A DNA stretch of 64,000 bases from an uncultured delta proteobacterium (GCA_963716725.1 CAVQUB010000020.1:128001-192000); one strand, 5' to 3'; positions 4,805 to 64,000 are shown, counted from the first letter of the stretch. The notes: generated by a model not told the origin, from the letters alone. Numbers and translations are program-made.

Positions 4805-4981
4805 TCAAGAGCTGTCGAAAATTCGACAGCTCTTTCACTTTGTCATCGGGGAGGCACGCGCCTCCCCGCCCCACCGAAGTGAATTCGTTGGGGCCCCACC
4901 CCACGCGACGCGCTTCGCGATACCCGACGGGGTGGGCCGGCTCCGCCGGCCTGCGCTCCGCCATTCTTCGACAGACCTTCA
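4805..4981. mobile_element. MITE-like non-autonomous element (171 bp, 4808-4978) flanked by TCA direct repeats
   Basis: Left end AGAGCTGTCGAA (4808-4819) versus reverse complement of right end AGGTCTGTCGAA (4967-4978), 10/12 match. TCA at 4805-4807 and 4979-4981. Three internal hairpins. Left ~104 bp recurs at 49690-49794 and the right end at 57966-58007. Confidence 0.75.
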
Positions 4982-42698: not shown

Positions 42699-43231
42699 AG
42701 GCAGTCCCGCGCGGCCGCTGGGAAGGGCCGCTTCACGTCGCGGTCCTGACCACGGGCGGGACCATCGAGAAGACCTACGACGAGACCGACGGGAGTCTGC
42801 GCAACGTGCGCTCGGTGCTGGCCCGGCTGCTCGACGAACTCAGGCTGCCGGACCTCCGAGTCACCCACATACCGGTGATGAACAAAGACTCGCTGGACAT
42901 GACCCCGGCGGACCGAGCTGAAATCCTGGCCAAGGTGCGCGACGCTTCGTCGCAGCAGGATGCCGTGGTGGTGATCCACGGCACCGACACGCTGGCGGTG
43001 ACGGGCGCGCACCTCTACGACAACCTGTCCGAGCTCCCGGTTCCAGTGGTGCTGACCGGCGCGATGCGGCCCTTCGAGTTCAGGGACTCGGACGCACTGC
43101 AGAACGTCACCGAGTCGCTCTTGGCCGCTCGGCTCTTGCCGCCGGGTGTGTACGTGGTGATGCACGGCCGCGCGCTCGCGTTCCCGGGCGTCGAAAAGCA
43201 TCGCGAGCGACGCACCTTCACCCGCGCGTGA
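42695..43231 (+). CDS. Short asparaginase-domain protein
   Basis: TTGGTIEK, KDSLDM, HGTDT, LTGAMRP; N-terminal domain only. Confidence 0.88.
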   Translation: MKAVPRGRWEGPLHVAVLTTGGTIEKTYDETDGSLRNVRSVLARLLDELRLPDLRVTHIPVMNKDSLDMTPADRAEILAKVRDASSQQDAVVVIHGTDTLAVTGAHLYDNLSELPVPVVLTGAMRPFEFRDSDALQNVTESLLAARLLPPGVYVVMHGRALAFPGVEKHRERRTFTRA

Positions 43232-47757: not shown

Positions 47758-48698
47758 TGTCCCGACGCCGCTACCTCTCGCCACTGTTGGCCGGCGGGCT
47801 GCTCGGCCTCGCCGTCGCCTGCGCCGCCGAGCCGTCGGACGACACGACGACGTCGTGCTCAGCCGGCGAGCCCATTGAGTGTCCGTCGCCCGAGGGGAAG
47901 ATCTTGGGTTGCTGTCCCGAGTCTCACCCGGTGTGCGCCACCGACGGGAAGGAGTGCTACGAGTGGGGCTCCGTCGGCGGCGGTGGCGGCGCGCCCGGCG
48001 GTGGCGGCGCGCCCGGCGGTGGCGGCGCGCCCGGCGGTGGCGGCGCGCCCAGCGGTGGCGGCGCGCCCGGCGGCGGCGGCGCGCCCGGCGGTGGCGGCGC
48101 GCCCAGCGGTGGCGGCGCGCCCGGCGGTGGCGGCGCGCCCGGCGGTGGCGGCGCGCCCGGCGGTGGCGGCGCGCCCGGTGGTGGCGGCGCGCCCGGCGGT
48201 GGCGGCGCGCCCGGCGGCGGGACCGGCGGGACCGGCGGGACGGGCACCGGCGGCACGGGCACCGGCGGGACCAGCTGCGTAGACGTGGGGTTCGAGCCCA
48301 ACGAAAACGAGAGTGGCGCAACCAATCTCGGGACCATCAACGACTGCGACGGATCGGGCTCGACGGCGTCGGGCAAGCTCAATGGGGCGAGCGACGTCGA
48401 TTACTACTCGTTCTTCGGCAACGACACGGCGGGGTGCGTCGTGGGCCCGGTCGCATCGACCACGGCCAAGGTCCGGCTTTGTCTGTTCGCGGATTGCGCG
48501 GGCGCGAAGGTGAGCTGCTCCTCCGGCACGCCCAATACTTCCCCCGGCGGTCGGCCGGGTTGCTGCGTCACCGCGGGTGGCAAAGTCGATATGTCGCTCG
48601 ACTGCACGGGCTGGACCGACAGCGCAACGATCTACATGCGGGTCGATCAGGGCGCAGCGAACGTGTGCACGAGCTACTCGGTCGACTACCATTACTAG
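47757..48698 (+). CDS. Gly-rich lipoprotein with C-terminal Cys-containing PPC-like domain
   Basis: LAVAC lipobox; GGGGAP repeats; FEPNE...DVDYY...YSVDYHY. Confidence 0.8.
   Translation: MSRRRYLSPLLAGGLLGLAVACAAEPSDDTTTSCSAGEPIECPSPEGKILGCCPESHPVCATDGKECYEWGSVGGGGGAPGGGGAPGGGGAPGGGGAPSGGGAPGGGGAPGGGGAPSGGGAPGGGGAPGGGGAPGGGGAPGGGGAPGGGGAPGGGTGGTGGTGTGGTGTGGTSCVDVGFEPNENESGATNLGTINDCDGSGSTASGKLNGASDVDYYSFFGNDTAGCVVGPVASTTAKVRLCLFADCAGAKVSCSSGTPNTSPGGRPGCCVTAGGKVDMSLDCTGWTDSATIYMRVDQGAANVCTSYSVDYHY
47979..48212. repeat. Coding tandem repeat, ~13 x 18 bp ([G/S]GGGAP)
   Basis: Unit ggcggtggcggcgcgccc, contiguous with no spacers. Confidence 0.93.
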
Positions 48699-48867
48699 GA
48701 CCAATGTCCTGACAATCGCCAGAGGGGCGAGCGGTCAGCGCGAGGAGGTTGACCGCTTGGGGGGCCCACCCCCGTCCGCTGGTCATCGCGCGCATTTGTA
48801 GTGCGACTTCGCGCGCGGAGCCGGCTCCTCATTTGCGGGCAGCCTGCTCTGGGCTCCGCTACTCTCG

Positions 48868-49683
48868 ATGACGACCATGACGGCTCGACCTTCGTCTTGG
48901 CGCACTCCGCTGCGGCTGTCGCTCGCGCTCGCGCTCACTGTCCTTGCGACGGGCTGCATTCTCTTGGTGGATTCGGCCGACGACAGCCTGGGGACGACTT
49001 GCCATTTTCAGGGCGAGTTGACGCAGTGTGGGCAGTGCGTCGCCAAGAGCTGTCAGGCGCAGGTGAACGCCTGCTGCGGCGCAGGCGCCGCCTGCATGGG
49101 GGAAGTGGACGCCTGCGCGAGCGGCAACTGCGCCGCGGTCTCGGTCGGAACTGCGGACTGGAAGAGCTGCGCCGCGGCTCAGTGCGCGTCGCCCTGCGGC
49201 ATCGCCAGCTCGAGCGACGCGGGGGACGGGGGCGGCGGCGAAGCCGGCTCGAGCGATGGCGGCTCGGATGCTCCCATCGAGTCGGCGGGCCCGACCAAGA
49301 CCGCTTGCCAGGTCACCGCCAGCCAATGTTTGTGCAAGCTCGACGCTCCGCCCAACGGCGTCGTCTGCGACTCCTCCGCTGTCATCAACGCACACTGCTG
49401 CGCCGATCTAGCCTGGCCAAGCTCGGGCAGCTGCACCTGCGAGACGATGTCCTGCGAGCTCAACTCGTATGGCTGCGAATGCGGCCTGGTGCAATCCGGC
49501 CCGCGCTTCGACTGCAAGCCGAACGCTTCGCAGCCCAACTGTTGCGCGCCCCACGACACTGGTTCGTGCTTGTGCAACAACAAGATCTGCGAGTCTTGGT
49601 TCGGCGCTCCGGTTCCCGAGTGCACGGCCGCCACTACGCCCTGCCCGACTGGCAAGAAGGCCGTTCAGGGCTGCTCGTTCTAG
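48868..49683 (+). CDS. Cys-rich lipoprotein
   Basis: LATGC lipobox; more than 30 Cys; stop TAG at 49681-49683. Confidence 0.75.
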   Translation: MTTMTARPSSWRTPLRLSLALALTVLATGCILLVDSADDSLGTTCHFQGELTQCGQCVAKSCQAQVNACCGAGAACMGEVDACASGNCAAVSVGTADWKSCAAAQCASPCGIASSSDAGDGGGGEAGSSDGGSDAPIESAGPTKTACQVTASQCLCKLDAPPNGVVCDSSAVINAHCCADLAWPSSGSCTCETMSCELNSYGCECGLVQSGPRFDCKPNASQPNCCAPHDTGSCLCNNKICESWFGAPVPECTAATTPCPTGKKAVQGCSF

Positions 49684-49804
49684 GTTGCGCTCAAGAGCCG
49701 TCGAAAGTTCGACAGCTCTTTCACTTTGTGATCGGGGAGGCACGCGCCTCCCCGCCCCAACGAAGTGAATTCGTTGGGACCTCACCCCAACGCGGGAAGA
49801 CGTG

Positions 49805-49945
49805 GGCGTGAGCCCGAAGTAGTCGAAGTCGACGTTGCCCGTCGGGGTCGTGAGCAGATCGAGCTTGCCGGCGGAGTCGTAGGTCCTGCCCACCAGCAAG
49901 CCATCCGGTCGCGTCGTCTGGGTGAGCTGCTTGTCCACGTTGCTT
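49805..49945 (-). pseudogene. RHS/YD-repeat fragment
   Basis: NVDKQLTQTTRPDGLLVGRTYDSAGKLDLLTTPTGNVDFDY; no start codon context, bounded by the MITE arm and the intron end. Confidence 0.7.
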
Positions 49946-49951
49946 TGTTGC

Positions 49952-50034
49952 GCCGAGTAGGGACCCCCGGTTGCCCGGCGGTTGCCCGGGGGCCCCTCTC
50001 ACAGAACCGGACTTATGGGCCTCACATCCGGCTC
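49952..50034 (-). ncRNA. Group II intron domains V and VI (3' end)
   Basis: Minus strand GAGCCGGATGTGAGGCCCATAAGTCCGGTTC (DV, AGC triad) then TGTGAGAGGGGCCCCCGG...CCGGGGGTCCCTACTCGGC (DVI with bulged A). Confidence 0.85.
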
Positions 50035-50645
50035 TTCGGGACGATGGCGTTGGCGACGGCCGTGTTCTTCACGAGACCTCGTGGCTCGCGAAGCTTGGGG
50101 CGGGTCCTCTTCCATCATCAGCTTACGCCTCAGCTCATCTTCCCTGCCGCACGGGAAGCCGATGTCCCAAATGCGCTCGTGGTTGCCACGCCAGTGAGCG
50201 TGAAGCGCAAAGCGGCCGCGTCGCTCGAAGTACTCGTTGTTGAGCCCCCGAGAAACGGCGCGGACCTTGCTGAGCGCCCACCAGCTCCGTCTTCGTGCAT
50301 GTACATCGACGTGCACGAGTGGAGCCGGCACTCCCATTTGCTTCAATCGGTTCACGATGTGCCGCTTGCGCTTCCACTGCTTCAGCAGAAGAGCGCGCAG
50401 GCGACGGCGGAGATGACCGTCGACACGGTCCATTCGAGGGTGATGCTTCCCGTCGCAGATCGCGAAGTCGCGAAGTAGCCGAGCCAACCGCGGAGATAGA
50501 CGTTCACGCGCTGGATGTACTCGTCGAACGACTGCCCCCGGTTGCGCGGCGTAAGCTCCTTCAGCCGTTGCCGGAGGCGCTCCCAGGACGACTCCGCCAC
50601 CAGGACGCGGACTGGCCCAGACTTCAGCCGATGTAGCGTCAGTCG
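50035..50645 (-). pseudogene. 5'-truncated group II intron-encoded protein (maturase/domain X only, class C-like), frameshifted
   Basis: LKELTPRNRGQSF...VNVYLRGWLGYF, then DGHLRRRLRALLLKQWKR...SWWALS...LNNEYF; RT core (YADD) absent. Confidence 0.85.
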
Positions 50646-50698
50646 GCGCGATGGACATCCGCAGAGCGGAACGCTATCGTCTGCGGAGGGGGCGGGCC

Positions 50699-53600
50699 AT
50701 GAATCGTGCGACTGTCAATTCTCGGTGGTTTTTTCAACTCGCAACGGTGCTTCTCGCGGGCGGGGGGGGGGGGGGGCTGCTCTAGCTCCGACGTGCGCGA
50801 GCCAGAGCGCGTCGTGTCGAGCGCCGACCAGATCTACGGACAGGGAGCCGTTGTAGATCAAACATCTACAAGCGGAACCGACGTAGGCATCGCGGCCAGC
50901 GTCGCGCAGATTTGCACGAGTGTGGACAACACCTGCTGCACGGCCACTTTCGTTTCCAGAACGCAGCTGGTCACTGCCGCGCACTGCATTTGCATCAAAT
51001 CACAGAAGAAGTTTGCGCCTGCGAACTCGTTTACGGTCACGCTCCCCGTTCAGCAGGGCGGCGGGTTTTCATGGGGGCCCAACGCGCCCAACGGCGGCGT
51101 CGTGACCGCTGCGGTGCCTCACCCGGACACGTTGAACACCTGCGCGGAATCTGGCGACGTGCTTGGGCCTCATCATGCGCACGACATCGCTGTCCTAACG
51201 GTGAGCCAACCCGTGCCCAACACCGTCCTCGGGAAGCCCGCGTTTCTTTTCCTCGGTGACATGAATTCCGCCTGGAATTCCAACTTCCTCTCGCACCTCG
51301 GCGGTAAATATGTGGGATTTGGCAACCAGGGTCCCAACAAGAGCTCCCCGAACGACGGGCAGCGGCGGATCGGTCCCGCAAGTGCCGTCAGCCCGTACAA
51401 AGATTTTTGCGACAAGCCGGGGATCTTGGAGGGCACCTGTTACGACGGGTGGATCTGGCGCGGAAGCGACAATGCAAACCTCACCTCGGTGATGGTGAAC
51501 GGCGATTCGGGCGGGCCGTTTTTTCTGAACGACAAGAACGGCGATTACCGGCTCGTAGGGATCCATTCGGGAAGAACGCAGCCGACGCCACTGGCCGCAA
51601 TACCCGACGGCAAGCAACTGCACGCTGTCACTGGTCCTAGCGGAGTCGGCACCGACAATTCCAGTTTCTTGTTCGCCCAGCTCGGTGGGGATCCGGACGG
51701 CGATGGCGTGCCGGACGGCACCGACAATTGTCCGTCCATCAAGTGCCCGAATGATCCAAGCGAGTGCAAGAACGCGGACCAGGCGGACAGTGACAACGAT
51801 GGCATCGGAGACGTCTGCGACAACTGCCCGTCAGTCGCCAACCCGAAGCAGGCGGATGGTGACTCCGACAACGTCGGAGACATCTGCGACCTGTGCCCTG
51901 AATTTGGCGACGAGTTCGCGCAGGGCCCGCAGTTCGACGTCGATGGCGACGGCATCGGAGGAGCGTGCGACGTCTGCAAGGGACAACCCAATCCCCGGAC
52001 AGCCTGCTTGTCGAACTCCAACTGTCCGCAGGCCGGATATTGCATCGCGGACGGACCGCCTGCTGGAATCATTGGCGGGCATTGCAGCCGCCCACGCGAC
52101 ACCGATCTCGATGGGATCCCCGATGGCTGCGACGCGTGCAAGACGGTGGTGAACACCACAGCGAATGCCAACGCTCTGGCCGAAGTGCGCGATCAGCAAC
52201 CCATGTTGAACGACGAATGCGACCCGGTGCCGAACGTTCGCCTGCCGCTCCAGGGCCCCGCACAGCCCGGGCAGATCCCGGATCCGTATCAGTTCCGGGT
52301 CATCAAGGCGGATCGCTGGCTCGGTCAGAATGCCGACGATCCCGCTGTCGGAGGCAACCGCTCCGTGGCGTATCGACATTGCTCGTGCATTGGCCAATCA
52401 GGCAACGACATCAATTTCAACCAATGCGTCAGCCAAGGCGGTCAGTGCGATTGGAACGACCCCGCCAATGGCCCGCTCTGGAGAGTTCCTCGGATCCAGG
52501 GGTTGAATGGAGCCCAGCTCCAGCCAAGCACTGGCAACTTCACGACTCCCCAGTCCTTCGCAGTCGGGCAGTCATCCGAATTCACGAACCGCTGGCCCTG
52601 GCGCGCCGACGTTCTGGCTGGGATCGTCGATGGACGAGGGAACTGCAATGCGCCACCCGGAGGGTCAAGCGACGATTGCCAGACCCATGGTGCGATCGCT
52701 GCCAGTGTGATCGGAGCACCGCTGGGCAGTAGTCGCGACACCCAACACATGGGCTTGCGCGACGTGTTCCGGGAACTGACCACGCCTGGTGTGGTCCCCA
52801 AGCCGCTGGAGGCGATGAGCTTCGATTGCTTCGGCTCAGGATGCTTCACCTGGCTCGATCCGGACGTGCTCATCTCGCCGGCACTGGTCCAGCCCGAGTT
52901 CTCCGTTTTCCTGAATCTCTTCACACAGCCCACGATACTGGCAGTCAAGGCGACCAGCCCCGTAGCGTTGACGGGGCCGAACGTGGCGCTCGACGTGAGC
53001 GCGAACGTACCGGCCAGCGTGGTGGCGATCATCGCAGATCCGACGCTGCTCAAGCTCCACCCCGTGGAGCCCGACCAGCAGATCGCGATCCACCAAGTGC
53101 AGAACGTGCCGCAAATCGTCGCGGTCTCGTCGGAGCTCGGCCCTGGACAGGACGTGGCCTTGATCCTGGCCACGCCAAGCGGACTCTCACCCAGGACGCG
53201 GACCACTCCGCTCTCTGCCACAGCGGCAATCACGTCGCCCGCGCCCCGTACTGGCGCGCAGGCAGTGTACTCCGCAATCGATCGCGCGGTGTATCTGGTC
53301 GGTGGAACCGACAACGGGGAAACCACGGGCGACATCTGGCGATTCGCTACGGAAGACGAAACGTGGACTCCCCTCGCGCTCGGCGCGGCTCAGGTGCCAG
53401 CGTCAGAGCTCCTGAGCGTCGCCTACGACCAGCAACAGAGAATGCTGTACGTACTCGATGTCGACGACGATTCGTTTCCCCCCGACTCGGTGATTGACGT
53501 GGGCGATTCTTCTGGTGGCGGAGCCTCCCCGAAGTGGCCGGGATTCAAAAAGCCGCTCGTCCAGTTGGTCCGACTGGTTCAATTCGATCTACAGGCCGGT

Positions 53601-53903
53601 ACCAGTCGCGTGGTCGCCACCTGGCCCCGTTTGGGCTTGAGCGACGCCACCCACATCGCCGCTCTGGCCGACGGTTCGCTGGCGCTGGTCACGACGAAGT
53701 TCAACGCCTACTTCGTTTTCCGTTTGGTCGTGACAGCCAACGGCGTGGTCGTGCCCGGGGGTGTGATTGCCGGCTCGGGCAAGGTTCTCGCCCAACCGGT
53801 CATGGGAGCTCGAAACCTCACTATCGCCGTCAAGCGCAATGGCAAGCTGGAGTACGTCGAGCTCGCGAAGTTCCACGCCGGCGCGCCATGCATGGCGCTC
53901 TGA
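50699..53903 (+). CDS. Lipoprotein trypsin-like (S1) serine protease with thrombospondin type-3 repeats and C-terminal Kelch-like region; signal peptide out of frame across a G15 tract
   Basis: VTAAHC, HDIAVL, NGDSGGP triad; DxDxDGIGDxCDNCP repeats; VYLVGG..GDIWRF. GGAGG then ATG 50699 MNRATVNSRWFFQLATVLLAG joins GGGGGC only if the tract is G14. Confidence 0.85.
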
Positions 53904-55315
53904 TACGCCTGGCCGTCGCGCTCCTGTCGAGCGCGGCGGTCGTGGCCGGCGTGGTTGCTGCTTGCTCCTCCGAGCCGGGTGGGAGCGAGGGCCAAGCAGC
54001 AACCGATGCGGGCTTCTTCGACGCGGTTCACGATACCCAGCCGAGCGACCAAGTCTCACTCGACTCGCCGCCAGACCACCTCGCGCTAGATGCGGGCGAC
54101 CTGCCGCCCGAGCTCGGCTGGCTCGTGGATCCAGCGATCTGGAAACCCATGGCGGGAGTGAGCATGGCGAAGTGCGAGCTGTTCGAGGCGCTGCCCGGAA
54201 AGTTTCCGTTGCCCGCCATCGAGTGGAAGGCGTGCGGTGCTGGATGCGAAGAGACGAGCCCGCAAGAAGCGCTGGTGAGCGACCTATACTTTCCGGTCGC
54301 CAGCACGCACTCCGTGGAAGGGCAAACGGAAGTCTTCCTGACCGGCGAGCAAGGTGTGAAGGGCAGCGCCTTCTGGTATGGCGTGCGCCGCGTGATCCGG
54401 CTCCGCGACGGAGTCACGCTCGGGGCGGTAGAACGGGTGGTGCCGACCAATGTGACCGAAAGCCCATGCGAGTTTGGCTCCGGGCGCGAGAGTGCACTCG
54501 AGAATACCGTGACGGGTGGAAACCCAGTAGTCAGGCTGACAATGACGGCTCCTCGGGTGGCCCTGAAGTCTTGGCGCTTTGCCCTTCCGCCGCCCTTGTT
54601 TTCGGAAGTTCCCGCTGGGTTGATCGGGTTCGACACGGATCATGATGGCGGGCAGGTGTTCTACATTGGCAAGGGCAGCGTCTGGGGGCTCCTCGATGTG
54701 GACGAGAGTGACTACACCCTACTGGAACCGAATTCGAGCTCGTACCACGGCGCGGGCGAAGGAGATCTGGCGGTGTGGACTGATTACGGTGTGGGTCGGA
54801 TCCGAGGTTGGGCGCCCGACGGACTCGGCGTGCGCACCATCGTCGACGGTTCGCCGCCGAGCATGTGTGACGTGGCGCCCACCCCGACACACATCATCGG
54901 TTTCGTACCGGAGGGTGGAAGCTGCGATGTGCCACACCCTGGTCGCGTTTGGTATGTGCCACGTAACACGACCCTGACGACCGCTACGCCAACGCTGAGT
55001 CCGCCTCTATCGGGCGACCCGATCGTGCTGGTGACGTCCTTCGGTATCCGCGCCTGGGGAGACTTCGCGGTGCTTCACCTCTCTACTCAAAATTCAAAAC
55101 CACGCCACCTTCTTGCCGTCCAGCTCTCGACCTGGAAGACGTGGCGCATCGACGCGGCAGCTGGCTTCGAAATCCAAGGGAACACGTTCGCGCTCACCGA
55201 CAAGCACCTGTATTACGGCGAAGGACCGAAGGGGAAAGCGCCCAACTATCTTTCCCGCATGCGCCGTATCGCCCTCGACCAGCTGGGCGGAGCACCCAAC
55301 GTGACACCACAATGA
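53888..55315 (+). CDS. Hypothetical lipoprotein (beta-rich)
   Basis: Overlaps the upstream stop; VVAGVVAAC lipobox; 475 aa. Confidence 0.75.
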   Translation: MHGALIRLAVALLSSAAVVAGVVAACSSEPGGSEGQAATDAGFFDAVHDTQPSDQVSLDSPPDHLALDAGDLPPELGWLVDPAIWKPMAGVSMAKCELFEALPGKFPLPAIEWKACGAGCEETSPQEALVSDLYFPVASTHSVEGQTEVFLTGEQGVKGSAFWYGVRRVIRLRDGVTLGAVERVVPTNVTESPCEFGSGRESALENTVTGGNPVVRLTMTAPRVALKSWRFALPPPLFSEVPAGLIGFDTDHDGGQVFYIGKGSVWGLLDVDESDYTLLEPNSSSYHGAGEGDLAVWTDYGVGRIRGWAPDGLGVRTIVDGSPPSMCDVAPTPTHIIGFVPEGGSCDVPHPGRVWYVPRNTTLTTATPTLSPPLSGDPIVLVTSFGIRAWGDFAVLHLSTQNSKPRHLLAVQLSTWKTWRIDAAAGFEIQGNTFALTDKHLYYGEGPKGKAPNYLSRMRRIALDQLGGAPNVTPQ

Positions 55316-55920
55316 GCCATCATTCTGCGTCGAAGCTAGTCGGGCTCGGGGTGGCGCTGGCGTTGTTCGCGCAGGGCAGCGAGGCACGTGCGGAACTCGG
55401 ATTCGTCGGCGTGGGAGCGGGCGTGGCCAAGCCGTACACCACCCAGCCGCTTGGCTTCGACGATCCAGCGGACGTGGGTCTCGGCTATGCGATCCGCGGA
55501 TTCGGCTGGGCCACGCCGTCCGATGGCCTGGCGGTTGGCATCACCGCGCTCCACGTGCGCGCACCATCACACGGTCAAACGAGCACGCTCAGCTTCGTGG
55601 GCTTGGGCGGTGGTTTGGGAACGGGTTTCGACGCGGCCACGGTGTTCATGCTCTGGGTCGCGCCAGGCGTGGGATACTCCAAGGGCGCGTGCGCTGCCGA
55701 TCTGGGAGGCGAGCTTGGAATGCGCATCGATCACCACGTGGCTCGTTCCTTTCGTGTGGGCGGAAGCGTGTCCTACACGGGAGTGCTCACCGGTTGCGGC
55801 GACGTCGCAGATGAAAGCTCGCCAGGCAACTACTCATCGGAACCGCCACTGCTTGGCTCCGCCCTCGTTCTTACCCTGGACTTCTCTTTCGATCTGGGTG
55901 CTCAGCCACGACAGCGTTGA
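55312..55920 (+). CDS. Small outer-membrane beta-barrel-like protein
   Basis: ATGA overlap; signal peptide ARA-E; alternating Gly/hydrophobic strands, LVLTLDFSFDL near the C-terminus. Confidence 0.65.
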   Translation: MSHHSASKLVGLGVALALFAQGSEARAELGFVGVGAGVAKPYTTQPLGFDDPADVGLGYAIRGFGWATPSDGLAVGITALHVRAPSHGQTSTLSFVGLGGGLGTGFDAATVFMLWVAPGVGYSKGACAADLGGELGMRIDHHVARSFRVGGSVSYTGVLTGCGDVADESSPGNYSSEPPLLGSALVLTLDFSFDLGAQPRQR

Positions 55921-56213
55921 ATTCGACTCCAACGCTAGTGCCGGGACTCGTCGCAGCTCACTCACGCGGGATCGAACACGCGAAAGCGTTTGGGTGTAGC
56001 TCTGGCGCTGACGCCGGTCACCGTCACTTCTTCCTCCCGCCGATCGGAAACGGCACGACGTTGTGCAACGTCGCCACCTTCGCTTGGTAGGTTGCGGCCA
56101 GCAGCGCCCATGCTCGATCGAACCGATCGCCGCGCTGTGTCCGTGTCCGTCCGCCCGACCGCACCCCTTGATGGGCGCTTCGACGGCGCGGCGGCAGGGC
56201 ACACTCCGCGGGC

Positions 56214-56546
56214 ATGAAACGGTGGACAGCTGATGAGGCGCGGAAAGCTCTGGCTCGGTGGGGCGCGAGCGGGAAGTCGGTTCGTGCGTTCGGGCGCGAA
56301 CACGGGATCGATGCACAGCGGCTGTATTTCTGGCGGCGCCGGTTGGGGACCGAGGCGAAGCGCGGTCTGGGGCGGCCCGTTCGTGCGCCCGCACGACTCG
56401 TGCCCGCGGTGGTGCGTGTCGGGAACGCGGAGAGCGGCGAACTCGGGGTGATCGTGCGTGTTCCGGGCGGCGTCGGCGTCGAGGCGGATCCCGGTCGCGT
56501 GAGTGCCGACTGGCTCGGGGCGCTCGTCGGCGAGCTCTCGAAGTGA
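56214..56546 (+). CDS. tnpA: IS66 accessory protein TnpA (HTH)
   Basis: WGASGKSVRAFGREHGIDAQRLYFWRRRL. Confidence 0.85.
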   Translation: MKRWTADEARKALARWGASGKSVRAFGREHGIDAQRLYFWRRRLGTEAKRGLGRPVRAPARLVPAVVRVGNAESGELGVIVRVPGGVGVEADPGRVSADWLGALVGELSK

Positions 56547-56932
56547 TAGCCGTGCTGCTCCTGCCTCGCGCGGTGCGCGTGTACGTGGCGACGGCGCCTG
56601 TGAATCTGCGGAGGTCGTTCGACGGGCTTTCGAACGAGACGCGCGAGGTCCTTCGACGCGACCCGCTCGGCGGCCACGTCTTTGTCTTCCTCAACCGGCG
56701 AGCGACAATGGTGAAACTTCTGGTGTGGACGCGCAGCGGCTTCACGATCGTGCACAAGCGTCTCGAGAAGGGCCGCTTCACGTTCCTGAGAGAGGTCGCC
56801 AGCGACGCGAAGAGCGTCGAGTTGGACGTGCACGAGCTGTCGATGTTGCTCGAGGGCATCGACGCTCGCGTTGTGCGGGCTCAGAAGCGCTGGGAGCCGC
56901 CGCTTCACGCGCGAGCCGTCGCGTCGACGTGA
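56543..56932 (+). CDS. tnpB: IS66 accessory protein TnpB (Orf2)
   Basis: PVNLRRSFDGL...DPLGGHVFVFLNRR...KLLVW...KRLEKGRF. Confidence 0.92.
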   Translation: MIAVLLLPRAVRVYVATAPVNLRRSFDGLSNETREVLRRDPLGGHVFVFLNRRATMVKLLVWTRSGFTIVHKRLEKGRFTFLREVASDAKSVELDVHELSMLLEGIDARVVRAQKRWEPPLHARAVAST

Positions 56933-57005
56933 CGGTACGTGATCCCATCTGACACTTCGCGATTGTTCTTGCCCCTGATGATCGCGGTGAAATAGAAGAT
57001 GAGAG

Positions 57006-57727
57006 GTGGGCAAGGCGACGTCGCGCAGAAGCAAAGAACGCCGCGGGCCCGTGCTCGACGTGCTCCAGGAGTTGCTCGCAGAAGGCCGCAACGACCAGGT
57101 CGTCCAGCTTTTCGAACAGCTCGTCGCCAAGAACAGCGAGCTGGAGAAGCGGCTCGCCGAGATCGGCGCGCGGCGCAAGAAGAACGAGGGGATCTCACGT
57201 GACCAGCTGCTGCTGTTTCTCGACGCGCTCGCGACTGCTGCGAGAGCGCGGCTGGAACGGACGAGGAACGTGACGAGGCGAATCTCAGGCTGCGCAGCGC
57301 GGCCGGTGTCGATGAGCAAGCTCAGCAAGGCGTGGGGACCAAAGAGATTCGGGAGCCGCGAACGCAGCCGCCGCTAAGGCGCGCTCCGCCGGCGCACCTG
57401 CGTCGAATCGACAATCCACTCGCCGTGCCTGCCACAGAGCGGCCTTGCCCGAAGTGCGGCGCCGAGCGCAAATGCATCGGCCACGATGTGACGGAGGTGA
57501 TCGAACTCATCCCTGCTGAGGTGGCGGTGCGACGCGACAGTCGGGAGAAACTCGCGTGCTCGAGCTGCGATGGCGAGTTGGTCCGCGCACCGTCTGGCGA
57601 CAAAGTCGTCGCCGGAGGCAAGCTCGGCTCGCAGCTAGTTTCCCAGCTCGTAGTCGACAAATACTGGGACGGGTTGCCGCTTCACCGCCAGAAGAACCGC
57701 TTCGAGCGCATGGGCCTGGCGATCCCC
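57006..57727 (+). pseudogene. tnpC: IS66 transposase TnpC, frameshifted and truncated before the DDE domain
   Basis: Coiled-coil N-terminus with QLLLF; CPKCG...IGHDVTEVIE...CSSC; DKYWDGLPLHRQ; ends where the RHS fragment starts. Confidence 0.85.
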
Positions 57728-57920
57728 GTCCACCTCCCCACCACCGGGTCGTAATCCCTCGCACCCAACCGCGTCAGCCCCGTCTCCGCATCGAGCGTCC
57801 CGCCCGCGAAGCCAAACGGCACAAAATCAGGCATCCCCGCGATCAGCGTCCGGTTGCCCCAAGCGCCGAAGTCGGCTCGCCACGCAACCGTTCCCGTCGC
57901 GACATCGACGACCGCCCGCG
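57728..57920 (-). pseudogene. RHS repeat-associated core fragment
   Basis: RAVVDVATGTVAWRADFGAWGN...PFGFAGGTLDAETGLTRLGARDYDPVVGRW, cut before the DP/DPxG motif. Confidence 0.85.
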
Positions 57921-58004
57921 GTCGGGTTGTCGGGCTCCTTCGGGACCGGAGCGGGCGCTGGCTCAGCTCCGCCGGCTTGCGCTCCGCCATATATCGACAC
58001 GCGT

Positions 58005-59108
58005 TCAGTTCGGCCAGGGACCTCGAAGGGACACGAAGAGCGAGCCAGGACCCAGGTTCGGAGTGAGGGCGAGCGCAGCGGCCGGACGCGAAGCACGCTC
58101 CCGCGGCCAAAGCCATGCGGCGACGACTGCGCCGCTGCCAACGACCAGCGCGCCGGTGCTGACCCAAGCGAACGAACGCGCGCGCGCAGCGTCATCGCGG
58201 TACTCAGCGAGAGCGGAAGCGTCGCGACAGAACTGGCGCTCCGACACGCAGCCCGCACGACGCTTGGCGTCTTCCGAGGTGGAGCTCGCCGACAGCGCCA
58301 TCGCGCCGGTCACCGCCGAGACCCCGAGCGCGGTCACACCCACGCCGCCCAGCACCCAGGAAGCGGTAGCGAAACGCAGCTCCTCGGCGCCCCAATCGGC
58401 GCTGGGCGCAGTGACGCAGCGACCTCCGACCCTTCGCTCGCCCGCCAAACACGCAGCCGGCTCAGCCGGACGCGGCGCTGGCAGCCTTTTGCCCTCCATT
58501 TGGCTTTCGACCGCCTCGAGGCGCGGCACCGAAACGACCCGCTCGCCGCCGTCCGCCCCGACGTCGAGCTGGGACTGCCAGCTTCGGTGGCCGGGCGCGC
58601 TCACGACGATGCGGTGCGCACCGGGGTCTATGGGTGTGGGGGTCGACCAGGCCAGCTCGGGGACTTTCGTTCCGTCAAGCTCGATGGTGATGGGCGCGCC
58701 CTTCGCCCCGGAGGCGATCTCGAAGCGCACGCGGGCGACCTTGCCCTCGAGCGCCTCGAGGTGGAGCAAGGCGAGCCGCTCGCGCTCAGGGCGCTTGTCG
58801 GCCCGAGCGGCGCTGAGCGCGTCTTGGTACTCGGTGTAGGCCGTGGCCAGTCGCCCCTGCTTCTCGTGGCAGAGGGCCAGGTTCAAGAGCGTGCCGCCTC
58901 CGGGGTCCAGTCGCTGGCTCTCGGCGAAGGCGGGGCACGCTTCAGCGTAGCGCTGCGCCTCGAGCAACACGCGCCCTTGCTCGAACAGCGCCTGGGCTTG
59001 GCGACGCTCTGCCTCATTCGGCTCGGCACGCACCAAACGTGGCAAGAGCATCACCGCGACCGCGAGGGCCAGCGTTGGTGGTCGCCGGGCTAGGGGCGGT
59101 CGGGTCAT
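58005..59108 (-). CDS. Secreted TPR + PEGA-like protein
   Basis: AQALFEQG...ACPAFAESQRLDPGGGTLLNLALCHE; IDPGAHRIVVSAPG; C-terminal hydrophobic segments. Confidence 0.85.
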   Translation of the reverse strand: MTRPPLARRPPTLALAVAVMLLPRLVRAEPNEAERRQAQALFEQGRVLLEAQRYAEACPAFAESQRLDPGGGTLLNLALCHEKQGRLATAYTEYQDALSAARADKRPERERLALLHLEALEGKVARVRFEIASGAKGAPITIELDGTKVPELAWSTPTPIDPGAHRIVVSAPGHRSWQSQLDVGADGGERVVSVPRLEAVESQMEGKRLPAPRPAEPAACLAGERRVGGRCVTAPSADWGAEELRFATASWVLGGVGVTALGVSAVTGAMALSASSTSEDAKRRAGCVSERQFCRDASALAEYRDDAARARSFAWVSTGALVVGSGAVVAAWLWPRERASRPAAALALTPNLGPGSLFVSLRGPWPN

Positions 59109-59135
59109 GGGCGCTGCCCCTGACGCTAGCACCTC

Positions 59136-60716
59136 TCATTTGCGGTCAAGCAGGCCGTCGGCGTGAATGCCCAGCGGGCTCGCCGCAGAGGCCAATCCAG
59201 GAGCGCGCGGCTCGCCGCGTCGCGGCGGCTTGGAAGCCCCCCGCTGGGATGCGTCGGGCGGGACCGTCGCCGAGGCCGGCGCCAACGCCGTAGCGTGGTC
59301 CGGGCTCGCAGCCGGTCGCGGTGCCCAGGCCGAGATCGCGCTGCGCAACCTGACCTCGGCGCCGGGCGCACGCCCGGCTGCGGACCAGATCCCGAGCCCC
59401 ACGATGACGACCACCGCAGCCGTGACCCAACCGAGGGTGCGCACCGGAGCCGGCCGCGGGCCGGCGGTTCCAGCGACGCTGGTGGCCAGCGCATCCGACC
59501 GCGCCAGCGCAGTCGGTCTCACGCTCGATCGCGCGTTGGCCGCGATGCGTTCGATGCGTTCCACGAGCGCGGTGACTCCAACGGGCGCGAAGCTCAACAA
59601 CGCCCGCGCCAACTCGGCGACGCTCGAGAACCGCAGGTCTCTATCCTTCTCCAGGCAGCGCGCGATCACCCGACCGAGCCCCTGGGGCAGATCCGGCCGA
59701 AGCTCATCGAGTGGCGGCGGGGGGCGGGTCAGGATCGCGGTGGCGAGGGCCGCCAAAGTCGGCGCATCGAACGCGGGTTTCCCGGCGCACAGTTCGTAGA
59801 GCACGGCGCCCAAGGACCACAGGTCGGTGCGCGCATCGACGGCGGCGGTGTGCTCCAGCTGCTCCGGTGACATGTAGCGCGGCGATCCCATGATGGCTGA
59901 GGTGTGGGTCAGTCCGGAATCCATGGTCGCGACCCCGGAATCCTCCGCCGCCTTGGCGATGCCGAAGTCGAGCACCTTCACCAGCGGCGAGCCGTCGACC
60001 GATCGGGTGAGGAACAGATTGGCCGGCTTGATGTCGCGGTGAACGATGCCACGAGCGTGAGCGGTCGCCAGCGCTTCACACACCTGCAACACGTGGCAGA
60101 CGGCTTCCTCCACCGGCAGCGCGCCGCGCTCCTCGAGCTCCTGCGCCAAGTCGCGACCCTCCAGGTGCTCGAGCACCAGGTACGGGCGACCGGAGCACAG
60201 ACCGGCGTCGATGACGCGCGCGATGTGCTCGCTGTCCAGCGCGGCTCCAGCCCGCGCTTCGCGCAAGAAGCGCCGCACGGATTCGTCGCTCGCGTCGGGC
60301 GCACGCAAGAGCTTCACCACCACGTAGGTCCCCAACACCAGGTGCCGTGCGCGCGCGACCACGCCCATACCACCGGCGCCGAGCACCGCTTCGATCGCGT
60401 ACTTCTCCGCGATCACGCGCCCCGGCGCGAGTAGCTGCGCCTCGGTCGAGTTCAGAGCGAAGTCCGCCGGGGCAGCCACCTGCCCCGCCGCCAGCAGCGT
60501 TGGCGCGTGTGGCTCCGCTGAGTCCACCCCTCGGTCTTCGCACTTCGCGGCTGCCAGCGCGGAGACCAACCTTCGACACTCGTCGCAGACCCCGAGATGG
60601 GCCTCGAGCTCACTCCTCCGCTCCTCCGAGTGGTCTCCAGCGACGAACGCCGCGACTTTGGCCTCGTCGGGACAATCGCGTCTCTCGGCCGGCTGCAAGC
60701 CAGAAGCGTCGGACAT
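59136..60716 (-). CDS. Ser/Thr protein kinase with N-terminal zinc-finger (HxxxCxxC) anti-sigma-like motif and TM helix
   Basis: CPDE...EAHLGVCDEC; LGAGGMGVV, HRDIKPAN, DFG, GSPRYMSPEQ. Confidence 0.92.
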   Translation of the reverse strand: MSDASGLQPAERRDCPDEAKVAAFVAGDHSEERRSELEAHLGVCDECRRLVSALAAAKCEDRGVDSAEPHAPTLLAAGQVAAPADFALNSTEAQLLAPGRVIAEKYAIEAVLGAGGMGVVARARHLVLGTYVVVKLLRAPDASDESVRRFLREARAGAALDSEHIARVIDAGLCSGRPYLVLEHLEGRDLAQELEERGALPVEEAVCHVLQVCEALATAHARGIVHRDIKPANLFLTRSVDGSPLVKVLDFGIAKAAEDSGVATMDSGLTHTSAIMGSPRYMSPEQLEHTAAVDARTDLWSLGAVLYELCAGKPAFDAPTLAALATAILTRPPPPLDELRPDLPQGLGRVIARCLEKDRDLRFSSVAELARALLSFAPVGVTALVERIERIAANARSSVRPTALARSDALATSVAGTAGPRPAPVRTLGWVTAAVVVIVGLGIWSAAGRAPGAEVRLRSAISAWAPRPAASPDHATALAPASATVPPDASQRGASKPPRRGEPRAPGLASAASPLGIHADGLLDRK

Positions 60717-60748
60717 GGTCGGAGTGCCGAAGTATGCTGGCGCGACGG

Positions 60749-61624
60749 ATGAACGAGCAAGCGCTGGCCGATGCTTTTCTACGAGCTTTGCCCGAAGCAG
60801 AGCGGGCCGGGCTCGCCAACGCCGATCTCGGCCGAGATCTCGGTTTGCTGATGCAAGCGGCCCGAGAGAGTTACCCGAGCCTGTGCGTGGACGAGCTGGG
60901 CTTCATGCACTACGCCGCGGAGCGCTACCAACAGCCGACGCAGCTGGAGCCGGCCCGCTTCGCGGACCTCTACTTGTGTGCCGGGGCCGCGGCCGGCGAC
61001 GGAGAAGCCGTTCGCATCTTCGAGACCGAGCACTGGCCCGAGCTCGAGCCGCCGCTGTCGAGGCTGCGCATGACAGCGGCGGAGCTCGCCGATCTGCGCC
61101 AGCGGCTGTTCGAGGAGCTGTTTGTGACCCGGCCCGACCGGCGCCCAAAGATCGCCGAATTTTCGGGCCTCGGCGATCTGCGTGGCTGGCTCAAGGTCAC
61201 CGCCGTGCGACTCGGGCTCAAGGTGTTGCGCGGACGCGAGCACCACGAGAACGCCGATGAGCTGCTGGAGCAGCGTGCCGCGGAAGCCGGCGATGCCGAA
61301 CTCTCACTGATGAAGGCCGAGTATCGCCCGATGTTCAAGCTGGCCTTCCAACGCGCGCTGGATTCGCTGCCGGACCGCGACCGACTGGTGCTGAAGCAAC
61401 ACCTGCTGGACGGGCTGAGCATCGACGTCCTCGGCGATCTGCACGGAGTTCACCGCGCGACGGCCGCGCGATGGCTGACCGCCGCCCGGGGGGCCCTGGT
61501 CGCGCGCACGCGGCGCGATTTGATGCGCGACGCGAACATCAGCGCTCGCGAATGCGACAGTGTGATGAAGCTGGTGCGAAGCCAGCTCGACACGACGATC
61601 CGGCGCCGGCTCTCCGACAGCTGA
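60749..61624 (+). CDS. Myxobacterial ECF-type sigma-like regulator
   Basis: DLYLCAGAAAGD, FSGLGDLRGWLKVTAVR, LDGLSIDVLGDLHGVHRATAARWL (region-4 HTH). Confidence 0.85.
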   Translation: MNEQALADAFLRALPEAERAGLANADLGRDLGLLMQAARESYPSLCVDELGFMHYAAERYQQPTQLEPARFADLYLCAGAAAGDGEAVRIFETEHWPELEPPLSRLRMTAAELADLRQRLFEELFVTRPDRRPKIAEFSGLGDLRGWLKVTAVRLGLKVLRGREHHENADELLEQRAAEAGDAELSLMKAEYRPMFKLAFQRALDSLPDRDRLVLKQHLLDGLSIDVLGDLHGVHRATAARWLTAARGALVARTRRDLMRDANISARECDSVMKLVRSQLDTTIRRRLSDS

Positions 61625-61666
61625 ACTTTCGCTGCGACCCGGCGCCTCGGGGGGGCTCTTAGGGTC

Positions 61667-62668
61667 ATGTTGCCGCTCTTTCGCCCCTCCACCCTGAGTG
61701 GGCTCTACCCCAAGGCCAGCCGAACGCTGCCTATTCTTGCTGCTTTGTCCTCGATCCACTGCTCTTCGAGCCCCGGTTCCGGGTACGGCGCCGGCGGGGC
61801 GGCCGGGGTCGGCGGCGAGTCGATGTTCGGCGGGGCCGCGGGATCGGCGGGCTCCGGGGGCGGCTCGGTCGTGGGGGGAAGCGGCGGCACCGGGGCTCAA
61901 GCGGGTGGAGGCGCCTCGAGCGGCGGAGTCGGCGGCAGTCCGTCGAGCTGCGGGGGGTACTGCGGGGAGCAAGCGCCGAGTGGCTGTTGGTGCAACGACC
62001 AGTGTTACTCGTACGGAGATTGCTGCCCGGACTATGCAGCGGCGTGCGGCAGCGGCGGCGCGGGTGGCAGCGGCGGCGCGGGTGGCAGCGGCGGCGGTGG
62101 CTCCGGGGGCAGTGGGGCGAGCGCGGGAGCGGGCGGAGTCGCCGGCTTCGATCTCGTCAACTGCACGGGGCCAGCCTCCACCACCGGCAGCGCGTCCGGC
62201 TCGACGCCCAGCGCCAAGCTGGGTTTCGTCCAACCCGATCCGTCCGGCAACGTGAAGGTGATCCTCTCGCCGAAGCTGACCACCTCAGCTGGCGATCTCG
62301 TCGTGGGGATCTATCTCTTCGCGCAGCCCAAGCAGCTCTCGTACCCGCCGAACGGCAGCGTTGGTTGCGTGATCCTCAGCGACAACGGCTCGAGCTGGGG
62401 CGTCGTCGCCAAGACGCAGATCTGCGAAGTCACGCTGTCCGCGCTTCAGTTCGCGTCGCAACCCGGCGTGTGCGACGGCGTGATCTCCGGGGTGTTCAAG
62501 GGGATCTTCAGCGGCAACCAGCCGGTCGCGGGCTCGTTCTCGCTACCGCTCGAAGTGGCAGAGTCCCAGATCAAGGCCCCTTCCTGTCAGGGCATGAACG
62601 GCCCCTGCTCGATCAATTCGGACTGCTGCTCGCAGTCGTGCTCCAAGTACATCGGGGTGTGCAATTGA
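61667..62668 (+). CDS. Gly-rich exported protein with somatomedin-B-like domain and C-terminal knottin-like Cys motif
   Basis: SCGGYCGEQAPSGCWCNDQCYSYGDCCPDYAAAC; CQGMNGPCSINSDCCSQSCSKYIGVC; start codon uncertain. Confidence 0.75.
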   Translation: MLPLFRPSTLSGLYPKASRTLPILAALSSIHCSSSPGSGYGAGGAAGVGGESMFGGAAGSAGSGGGSVVGGSGGTGAQAGGGASSGGVGGSPSSCGGYCGEQAPSGCWCNDQCYSYGDCCPDYAAACGSGGAGGSGGAGGSGGGGSGGSGASAGAGGVAGFDLVNCTGPASTTGSASGSTPSAKLGFVQPDPSGNVKVILSPKLTTSAGDLVVGIYLFAQPKQLSYPPNGSVGCVILSDNGSSWGVVAKTQICEVTLSALQFASQPGVCDGVISGVFKGIFSGNQPVAGSFSLPLEVAESQIKAPSCQGMNGPCSINSDCCSQSCSKYIGVCN

Positions 62669-63925
62669 AACGCTGGGCGGCCGCGTGCCTCGGCGCTGCG
62701 CTCCTGGCCCTCGGCGTCGCTTGCGGCAGCGGAGGTGGTACCGCTAGCGGCGCCGGCGTCGATGGCGGAGCCGGGCTCGGCGTTGGGGGCTCGGCGGCGA
62801 CTTCCGGAGGCGGAGGCACAGCAGGGACCATCAGCGCGGGCGGCAGCGCCGGGGTGGAGGACGCCGGTGCTCCCCCGGCGGTTTGCGAGGACTACATCGC
62901 GTGCGTCGCCGAATCGACGCCGGCCGGGCTCGCGGCAGTGCTCGCCGCCTACGGCAAGTCCGGCAGTTGCTGGCAACAGGGGGACCGCTCGCTCTGCGAG
63001 CAGGCTTGTCACTCCGGGATCGTCGCGGCGCACAAAGCATTCCCCAAAGCCAAGACCTGCAACGTTTGTGACACCTCCGCCGACTGCACGTCTTCTGCGC
63101 CCGCGTGCGACCCGGCGACACTGCGCTGCGTCGAGTGCGTCAGCAACTCCGACTGCAGGCGATCCGGGGAAGCCGGCCTGCGATTCGGCCGCTCGCAGTT
63201 GCGTCGCTTGCACGAACGATAGCCACTGCGCGAGCCCAAACCAGCCGGCGTGTGACCTGGCGACCCACACTTGCGTCCAGTGCACCAACAGTACCCACTG
63301 CTCCGTCTGGACGGGGCCGGTGTGTGACCTCTCGAGCCACCAGTGCCGCGATTGCGCCACCGACGCCGAGTGCGGGTCGGGGGCGTGCCATGCGGGTCAG
63401 TGCAAAGAGTGCAAGACCGACGCACAATGCCCGCTGGCCAAGCCACACTGCGGCTCGCTCGGGGTCTGCGTCGGCTGCGTGAAGGACAGCGAGTGCAGCC
63501 CTGGAGTCTGTACCTTCGGATCGTGTTGTGGCGTGAACGCTTGCGCCAAGAACGGGGTGGAGTGCGGTTCAACCGTCGACCTGGGCTGCATCTTCCAGCC
63601 CATTTCTTGCGGCCAGTGCACGGCGAACAACCTCTGCGTCAACGGCAGCTGCAAGACGAAACCGGAAAACACCTGCGTGCCGTCGGCCTGCGCCTCCAAG
63701 AAGTGCGGCTACGTGCCCGAAAAGAACGCTTACGACTGTGTCGCGGGCAGCTCCTACTGCACCGCCAACAAAGCCTGCGACCCGGGCTTCAAGTGCGTCA
63801 AATCGAGCGTCAGTGGCAGCGACTACTACACTTGTCAGAACTACTGCGTGACCTCCGCGGACTGCGCCAACGCGAAGACCTGTCAGCCCGCGAACGGGCC
63901 GACGAGCTACGGGGTGTGCAAGTAA
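62665..63925 (+). CDS. Cys-rich lipoprotein with CVxCxxxxxC repeats (frameshift near 63160)
   Basis: TTG overlapping the upstream stop; LGVAC lipobox; repeated PxCD..TxxCVxC units. Confidence 0.75.
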
Positions 63926-64000
63926 CGCGCGGGAGGCTAGCGGGGCTTCGCAGGCGACGACCCGCGCGCGTCCGGCTGCCAGAACTCACGGTCCACGTCG

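Follow-up and report, generated by a model that had tools for sequence, protein, structure and literature searches.

How did some 8 kb of mosaic DNA come to lie between the two halves of a small non-coding element, and does the resulting block represent a mobile unit in its own right? This question is raised by a locus within a stretch of 64,000 nucleotides from an uncultured delta proteobacterium (G000:C20:128001-192000, called the window in what follows, with positions counted from its first letter), which belongs to an assembly (G000) of 7.9 Mb in 35 contigs that is 84% complete and to which contig names such as C1, C4 and C13 refer. [quoted passage not shown] A previous sequence-only reading of this 8.3-kb block offered two possibilities, namely a non-autonomous element that had captured and now carries cargo, or a hairpin-rich MITE that serves nested insertions as a landing pad. 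The explanation that on balance appears probable is that an old MITE copy was used as a landing pad, broken at an insertion hotspot, filled with mosaic DNA and then decayed, inside a strain-specific island. The landing-pad proposal is supported by a break at the point where the family carries a central module, by three further MITE copies loaded with an insertion sequence (IS), and by the mosaic of truncated pieces within the block, while the capture of cargo by a non-autonomous element found no positive support, the block being present in one copy, with a decayed right end, permuted RHS edges and no second or empty site. Comparisons were made with six congeners in the genus (including G002, G003, G004 and G005), with 40 other genomes of the family and with public sequencing runs, among them X1, X6 and X8 from different studies; four runs were examined over window positions 48300-59300, X1 possibly being the source sample. 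All searches for an empty site in public data have the scope of contigs and exact-word scans, which may miss rare variants.

The split copy and its family

The features that delimit the block, together with an intact copy of the MITE elsewhere in the window, are as follows.

4808-4978, plus strand: intact 171-bp reference MITE, with terminal inverted repeats (TIRs) AGAGCTGTCGAA and AGGTCTGTCGAA and with TCA at 4805-4807 and 4979-4981
49691-49693, plus strand: left TCA, a putative 3-bp target duplication
49694-49798, plus strand: left arm of the split MITE, corresponding to the 144-bp type from position 1 to about 102-105, with 93% identity to the consensus
57922-57954, no strand: 33-bp filler at the inner right junction, with no significant likeness to the MITE middle
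57955-58004, plus strand: right arm of the split MITE, secure from 57966, whose last 12 bp belong to the older TTCGACACGCCT type and contain additional mismatches
58005-58007, plus strand: right TCA, serving on the minus strand as the TGA stop of a gene for a tetratricopeptide-repeat (TPR) protein

The claim that MITE halves lie at both edges of a block of about 8 kb was confirmed, and these are complementary halves of one MITE type of 144-180 bp. On the left, 49694-49794 is identical to positions 1-100 of the reference MITE at 94 of 101 positions and, in comparison with the 144-bp variant, the match covers positions 1-102 and reaches 49796; a multiple alignment carries this arm on through ..ACGCGGG (CCCCAACGCGGG) to 49798, with one mismatch in its first 12 bases. 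On the right, 57966-57999 corresponds to reference positions 133-166 (88% identity by BLAST), the start is placed at about 57955 in the multiple alignment, and the last 17 bases contain six mismatches to the main consensus and four to the end of the older subfamily. When both are projected onto the 144-bp type, the left arm ends with ..ACGCGGG and the right arm starts with (GCGC)TGGCTCAGCTCC, and because the arms are complementary at this central point the break can be located at the hotspot that is described below. Their complementarity further suggests that the two arms originated from a single insertion. Bases of an older lineage are present in both arms, CCCCAACGAAG being common to the congeners and to C18:117077, and the older end ..CGACACGC.T being common to C21:245741, C5:388930 and G004.

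The filler at 57922-57954 was also considered as a diverged middle of the MITE or as a diverged unit resembling repetitive extragenic palindromic (REP) sequences, a candidate that was rejected because its score was reached by 57-243 of 300 shuffled sequences and by 428 of 1000 in a second test. By the same shuffle test, an extension of the right arm to 57938 is unsupported.

The reference MITE is hairpin-rich (DNA fold of -51.9 kcal/mol, z = -6.7), and a BLAST search of G000 with this 171-bp copy returned 13 intact copies, six of which are 171 bp long, five 179-180 bp, one 144 bp and one 141 bp. A further three copies are interrupted by about 1.47 kb, one is the split copy at the 8.3-kb block, and three are decayed or partial:

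C18:117077; C5:388930-389017 (solo right half); C12:57574 (20-bp end stub): decayed or partial MITE copies

Copies were also found in five of the six congeners. All intact copies terminate in AGAGCTGTCGAA and AGGTCTGTCGAA, with TIRs of 12-16 bp and no coding capacity. Among 17 copies, 15 have CTCA as their left flank and two have CTCG; on the right, TCAG follows 15 copies and TCAC one, the remaining copy also showing TCAG in the multiple alignment. TCA is found at both ends of 15 copies, the other two having TCG on the left. The earlier observation that TCA is directly repeated at the outer edges of the block is accurate, but it is not diagnostic: the repeat is a property of the family, seen for any copy or any two copies, and since all MITE copies have the same flanks it provides no evidence for a single insertion.

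The position of the right arm at a stop codon is equally typical. In 14 of 16 copies, an opposite-strand open reading frame (ORF) with 170 codons or more has the right-flank TCA as its stop (of the two exceptions, one is truncated by a contig end), against a genome-wide background of 15% (1184 of 7770 RCTCAG sites). Insertion at a TGA stop, in a fixed orientation and with the stop regenerated, is a habit of this MITE family, for which targeting and the survival of harmless insertions are both possible reasons. One MITE of G003 has an orthologous empty site in G000, where the empty state contains one TCA (a stop codon) and the filled state has TCA on both sides; this pair fits a 3-bp TCA duplication, although, with the upstream spacer so diverged, one TCA may belong to the element.

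A scan of the MITE against Rfam gave sub-threshold matches alone (20.1 and 17.8 bits). The 27-nt hairpin core of the MITE was observed at 11 loci in other Polyangiaceae/Myxococcales genomes (public contigs of metagenome-assembled genomes, L053-L063); an AGAGCTGTCGA. end adjoins the core in two of these, nine of the 11 are without MITE ends, and at two other loci the core lies between different palindromic ends (CTAGCAGGCTGCTGAA..). The hairpin core may be an older module that has been reused by different MITEs.

The ends of the MITE are shared with larger elements of G000. A motif scan of the assembly revealed elements of 2.7 kb with AGATCTGTCGAA ends, CTCA/TCAG flanks and the same 12-bp ends as the MITE, of which at least three copies, 93-98% identical, are present:

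C15:529217-531928; C15:431812-434518; C6:142361-145701; partial copies on C11 and C4: 2.7-kb elements

They encode a 532-aa ORF with an HNH motif, together with just the first 175 aa of an IS1182-type transposase, corresponding to positions 2-147 of the 488 of model NF033551 with a score of 105 bits, which is below the cut-off of 270. A second IS1182-type family, of 3.4 kb, comprises seven copies that are more than 98% identical (C3:37053-40451 and six more), with TCA on both sides and with ends (GAGCCTGTGAAAGAAT..) that are related to those of the MITE but different from them. Its transposase is complete (424 aa, with DUF772, DDE_Tnp_1 and DDE_Tnp_1_6) and is 37-41% identical to that of the 2.7-kb elements in the N-terminal domain. 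An IS with the ends of the MITE had been suggested as a target for searching, and this search was partly successful: the 2.7-kb elements have the same ends, but they contain a partial transposase only, and a full-length IS1182-type transposase with MITE-identical ends (AGA(G/T)CTGTCGAA) was not found with the 175-aa query in G000, which is 84% complete, or in the six congeners. Through its ends and its TCA target, the MITE can nevertheless be placed with IS1182-type elements.

In this regard, the family resembles the bacterial MITEs derived from IS5 and IS1182 in its length of 141-180 bp, its TIRs of 12-16 bp, its lack of coding capacity, its many near-identical copies and its short fixed and apparently duplicated target (TCA within C-TCA-G), and also in that larger elements encoding an IS1182-type transposase domain have the same ends and target. 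It differs from IS1182-derived MITEs in that the closest complete transposase is carried by the 3.4-kb IS, whose ends are related and non-identical, and in that the hairpin core also occurs without these ends at nine of the 11 loci elsewhere.

As to the larger elements themselves, both IS1182-type families contain a conserved HNH/RuvA_C-like ORF of about 490-530 aa beside the transposase gene, which in the 3.4-kb family is bracketed by inverted repeats of 18-30 nt. A tandem repeat with a period of 27 bp and a varying copy number is located near the left end of the 3.4-kb element (C4:157623-157881, C5:605094-605213 and C21:51084-51176).

The MITE centre as an insertion hotspot

It is demonstrable that the centre of the MITE is an insertion hotspot. 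In aligned variants, the 144-bp type, which is also the type found in the congeners, reads ..CCCCACGC|GGGCCGGCTCC.. at its centre. The 171-bp type contains 27 extra bases at this point (ACGC|GGG), which correspond to a REP-like motif that is scattered through the genome and is present in most MITE copies, while in the type of 179/180 bp a second CCGACGGG has been added at the same place. Three MITE copies of 1646 bp go further, as they contain an IS4/Tn5-like IS of 1467 bp inside the REP-like module, in both orientations.

The 1467-bp IS encodes a Tn5-like transposase of 469 aa (NF033590, 298 bits against a cut-off of 160; Tnp_DNA_bind and DDE_Tnp_1) and has the ends CTCATGAT.. and ..ATCATGAG. 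Its full copies in G000 are located as follows.

C13:288522-289988; C13:84056-85522; C24:289-1755; C10:8851-10317; C5:32544-34010; C5:676888-678354; C4:158802-160268: full copies of the 1467-bp IS

All seven are hosted by the motif ACCCGA(A/C)GGGGTG, in either orientation, three of them within MITEs; one copy of the IS lies within a 2.7-kb IS1182-type element. The 8-bp flanking repeat is perfect in five of the seven copies, has one mismatch in one copy and is replaced by no direct repeat in the last. With its Tn5-like DDE transposase, short inverted ends and 8-bp repeat, this IS has the features of the IS4 group, for whose members a target duplication of about 10 bp is given in PMC2266710. It has also been described, in PMC1525189, that REP sequences serve as targets of ISs. 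The present case is similar to such REP or bacterial interspersed mosaic element (BIME) targets, in that a GC-rich palindromic repeat is specifically targeted, here by the 1467-bp IS, and it is different in that the REP-like unit is embedded in a MITE. Because of this embedding, the MITE inherits the hotspot.

The doubled CCGACGGG is the 8-bp repeat of the 1467-bp IS, and it is present in five dispersed MITEs:

C21:257993; C13:26524; C13:329192; C6:95011; C6:71326: MITEs of 179-180 bp with the doubled CCGACGGG

From its sequence, the doubling looks like the scar of a departed IS, in a MITE that would have spread afterwards. The reverse relationship, in which the 1646-bp copies would be the autonomous parent of the MITE and the 171-bp form would have arisen by deletion between the 8-bp repeats, was rejected, since the interior is an independent IS with ends of its own. 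It is also ruled out by the presence of a 99.9% identical IS in the same motif outside MITEs (C13:84056, C10:8851, C5:32544 and C4:158802) and by the occurrence of both orientations inside them. Within the 8.3-kb block itself, no end of the 1467-bp IS was found.

At C4:169700-173160, pairs of the REP-like motif recur three times at intervals of exactly 1693 bp, and this spacing implies a tandemly repeated unit of 1.69 kb.

Contents of the block, its possible history and the alternatives

Between the two arms, the following features are present.

49805-49942, minus strand: RHS core fragment B (138 bp), 90% identical to C13:102559-102696, within a 1453-aa RHS ORF
49951-50644, minus strand: group II intron truncated at its 5' side, of which the 3' 694 bp are kept, 94-95% identical to C13:94663-95344 and C1:285719-286399
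50706-53903, plus strand: trypsin-like / thrombospondin (TSP) type-3 / Kelch protein, 1065 aa, the first gene of a three-gene cluster
53900-55315, plus strand: second gene of the cluster, with a lipoprotein-like N-terminus (..VVAAC|SSE), no Pfam family and an uncertain start codon
55312-55920, plus strand: third gene of the cluster, 202 aa, its ATG overlapping the preceding TGA, no Pfam family
56214-57754, plus strand: IS66-family remnant, with TnpB_IS66 at about 56576-56878, and zf-IS66 plus the first 38 positions of DDE_Tnp_IS66 at 57332-57754
57723-57921, minus strand: RHS core fragment A (199 bp), 88% identical to C13:101345-101543

The contents that had been reported for the block, namely a protease operon and debris of RHS, a group II intron and IS66 without a cognate transposase, were all verified, and no transposase matching the arms was detected within it. 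In the C13 copy, to whose 3' end the intron fragment is 95% identical, the ORF contains RVT_1 (9.6e-42) and GIIM; the reverse transcriptase part is absent from the copy in the window, and domain V/VI, at 49952-50036, scores 33.1 bits (E 0.0019) and stays under the gathering score of 40. The tnpC gene of IS66 is truncated after the zinc finger, at 57722/57754, where RHS fragment A begins. At 57722|57723, that is, between the IS66 remnant and fragment A, run X8 contains 652 extra bases, a structural variant in another population, and this point is either a deletion edge in G000 or the site of an insertion in the X8 population.

The protease has no close match in the six congeners (34-40% identical) or in the 40 genomes of the family (31-44%), the best match among the latter being 44% identical over part of its length. 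The block had been perceived as visibly richer in A/T than its flanks, which applies to overall composition, with a GC content of 64.3% for the block and 63.2% for the gene cluster against 68.5% for window positions 1-48700. At third codon positions (GC3) the contrast is modest, because two neighbouring ORFs have a value of 0.73, within the range of the three cluster ORFs (0.68-0.75), the two flanking genes having 0.80-0.84.

In the intact 1453-aa RHS ORF on C13, B is located upstream of A, whereas the coding strand of the block has A first and B downstream. Owing to this permuted order, the interior reads like a span from one RHS copy into the next of a tandem array, such as that on C13, which would later have been invaded and trimmed. 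It has in common with RHS loci that contain orphan cassettes and nested mobile elements that RHS core fragments have IS copies and a group II intron as neighbours, the situation seen at C13:94-105 kb; it differs in that the block keeps just the fragments of 138 bp and 199 bp, in permuted order, with half a MITE outside each.

The history that is suggested would start with one old non-autonomous IS1182-type MITE, inserted behind the TGA of the TPR gene at the target C-TCA-G with duplication of TCA. This MITE would later have been broken at its central ACGC|GGG, where the family repeatedly takes extra DNA and where about 8.2 kb are present now. The entering DNA may have been not one tidy cargo but a segment of an RHS array that extended from fragment A to the following fragment B; before or after its entry this segment would have been invaded by the group II intron and IS66, joined to the foreign three-gene protease cluster and trimmed by deletions. 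Entry may have taken place by break repair or illegitimate recombination and not by transposition, and the block is presumably no longer mobile.

Several observations weigh against this history. Neither an empty site nor the two flanking genes with an intact MITE between them, either of which would be the ancestral state, could be recovered from the congeners, the four runs or the metagenome words. At the inner junctions, the two members of a candidate 7-bp duplication, ACGCGGG and GCGCTGG, are equal at five of seven positions, and the arms are touched by RHS fragments and 6-33 bp of filler, not by the ends of known mobile elements. As TCA flanks are common to the family, nothing proves that both arms come from one insertion, and half-elements such as the solo right half on C5 and the stub on C12 occur elsewhere. 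Moreover, with the 2.7-kb elements, which are multi-copy, non-autonomous and provided with these ends, the system can move kilobase passengers, which keeps the idea of a mobile cargo alive.

The latter idea would make the block a unit resembling a mobile insertion cassette (MIC) or a transporter IS, in which all 8.3 kb were moved as a whole into C-TCA-G by a transposase acting in trans and have since decayed, and we consider it unlikely. MIC231 of IS231 is an example of a mobile insertion cassette. IS ends around passenger genes without a transposase of their own are treated as MICs or transporter ISs in PMC3129680 and PMC3913671, so that the class as such is already described. For this reason, and because its ends and target match the IS1182-type elements in G000, the previous statement that no described family could be recognized for the block does not stand. 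As in that class, IS-type ends surround passenger genes and no cognate transposase is located inside; the arms point outwards in the correct orientation, the flanks are the TCA of the family, and the right end adjoins a stop codon, as it does for 14 of the 16 copies. The 2.7-kb elements, with their identical 12-bp ends and flanks and their near-identical copies, also speak for such movement, and two of the IS-loaded MITEs, those on C24 and C5, in which the IS points the same way, could represent copies of a single loaded element of 1.65 kb. However, described MICs are compact, with intact ends and movement that was shown or inferred, while the block is single-copy in the 7.9-Mb assembly, no polymorphic empty site was seen for it in the data examined, and its right end is decayed, with four to six mismatches in the last 17 bases. 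Likewise, its protease is without a close match in the congeners or the family genomes and no complete transposase with matching ends was found in G000, at its 84% completeness, or in the six congeners. Truncated debris that is bounded by permuted RHS fragments at both interior edges fits piecemeal accretion better than capture.

A similarly low probability is assigned to two separate MITE insertions or half-elements with ordinary island DNA between them, the inner halves having been deleted. The flanks, being identical in every copy, cannot link the two arms; solo halves and stubs exist in G000, and the region is clearly marked by deletions. Yet the arms are free of overlap, and on the 144-bp element both stop within a few bases of one and the same point, which would be a coincidence for independent truncations unless that point is a breakage hotspot, and both have the same orientation and a similar older type. 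In addition, the right end of a separate left MITE would be expected at a stop codon, whereas its actual neighbour is a mid-gene RHS fragment.

More doubtful still is the notion that the central ACGC|GGG is a general capture site, at which stray DNA is taken up in the repair of breaks that go back to the site-specific IS or to failed excision, and that the loaded elements of 1.65, 2.7 and 8.3 kb are moved in trans by an IS1182-type transposase. If this were true, the capture site of the MITE would be a bacterial analogue of the Pack-type gene-capturing elements of plants, ferrying RHS pieces and the protease cluster between gene ends. Under the preferred explanation of a broken and filled landing pad, the block alone is an ordinary nested insertion followed by decay in a variable island. 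The MITE family may be regarded as a natural system for the choice of targets at gene ends, for the change from MITE to hotspot, and for the in-trans movement of elements with kilobase passengers in myxobacteria-like genomes.

Flanking genes, island and population data

The genes next to the block and the island that contains them are as follows.

48699-63984, no strand: island of 15.3 kb, absent from three congeners, holding the block and both flanking genes
48868-49683, plus strand: left flanking ORF, 271 aa, no Pfam family, TAG stop at 49681-49683
58005-59132, minus strand: right flanking TPR gene, 375 aa, its stop being the right TCA

Synteny with three congeners stops at 48698 and resumes at 63985, and in blastn comparisons the sides of the island are apart by 38 bp in G005, by 78 bp in G003 and by 1.3 kb in G002. 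Because both flanking genes are inside an island that these three congeners lack, such relatives cannot supply the empty site. Neither an integrase nor a tRNA was found in the island, and its borders have no common repeat of at least 10 bases except for one 11-base inverted word.

The public runs bear on the junctions of the block. In X1, contigs cover 49436-49810 and 57719-58126 with 0 differences, and in X6 they cover 49557-50045 with nine differences and 57804-58070 with 0; the left junctions in X8 are covered by two overlapping contigs, 49291-49760 and 49740-50045. The left junctions are thus bridged in runs of three studies and the right junctions in two, with no single listed contig extending over the whole 8.3 kb. 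An assembly artefact, that is, a chimeric join through the repeats (MITE, intron, IS66 and RHS) of a metagenome-type assembly, would be conceivable for a repeat-rich block in an 84% complete assembly of 35 contigs, but it is highly improbable given that short contigs from different studies, one of them possibly the source sample, run, with 0-9 differences, over the left and right junctions, outer as well as inner. In the four runs, no contig joins 49690 to 58005, the listed joints at this place having short sides of 21-58 letters and being untrusted, and exact words from the flanks (25 nt on the left and 22 nt on the right) gave 0 matches in the metagenome collection.

A paralog of the TPR gene, 88% identical, is located at C12:56299-57573, and its TGA stop is abutted by 20 bp of a MITE end that belongs to another subtype (AGAGCTGTCCAAGAATTGAC; C12:56299-57594). 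Among the three convergent gene pairs that had been cited for their spacing, the pair at 43231/43235 was seen in the window. Encoded in the island, besides the block, are a TPR protein, a kinase of the Ser/Thr type, a sigma-70 region-4 protein and a protein with a Somatomedin-B domain.

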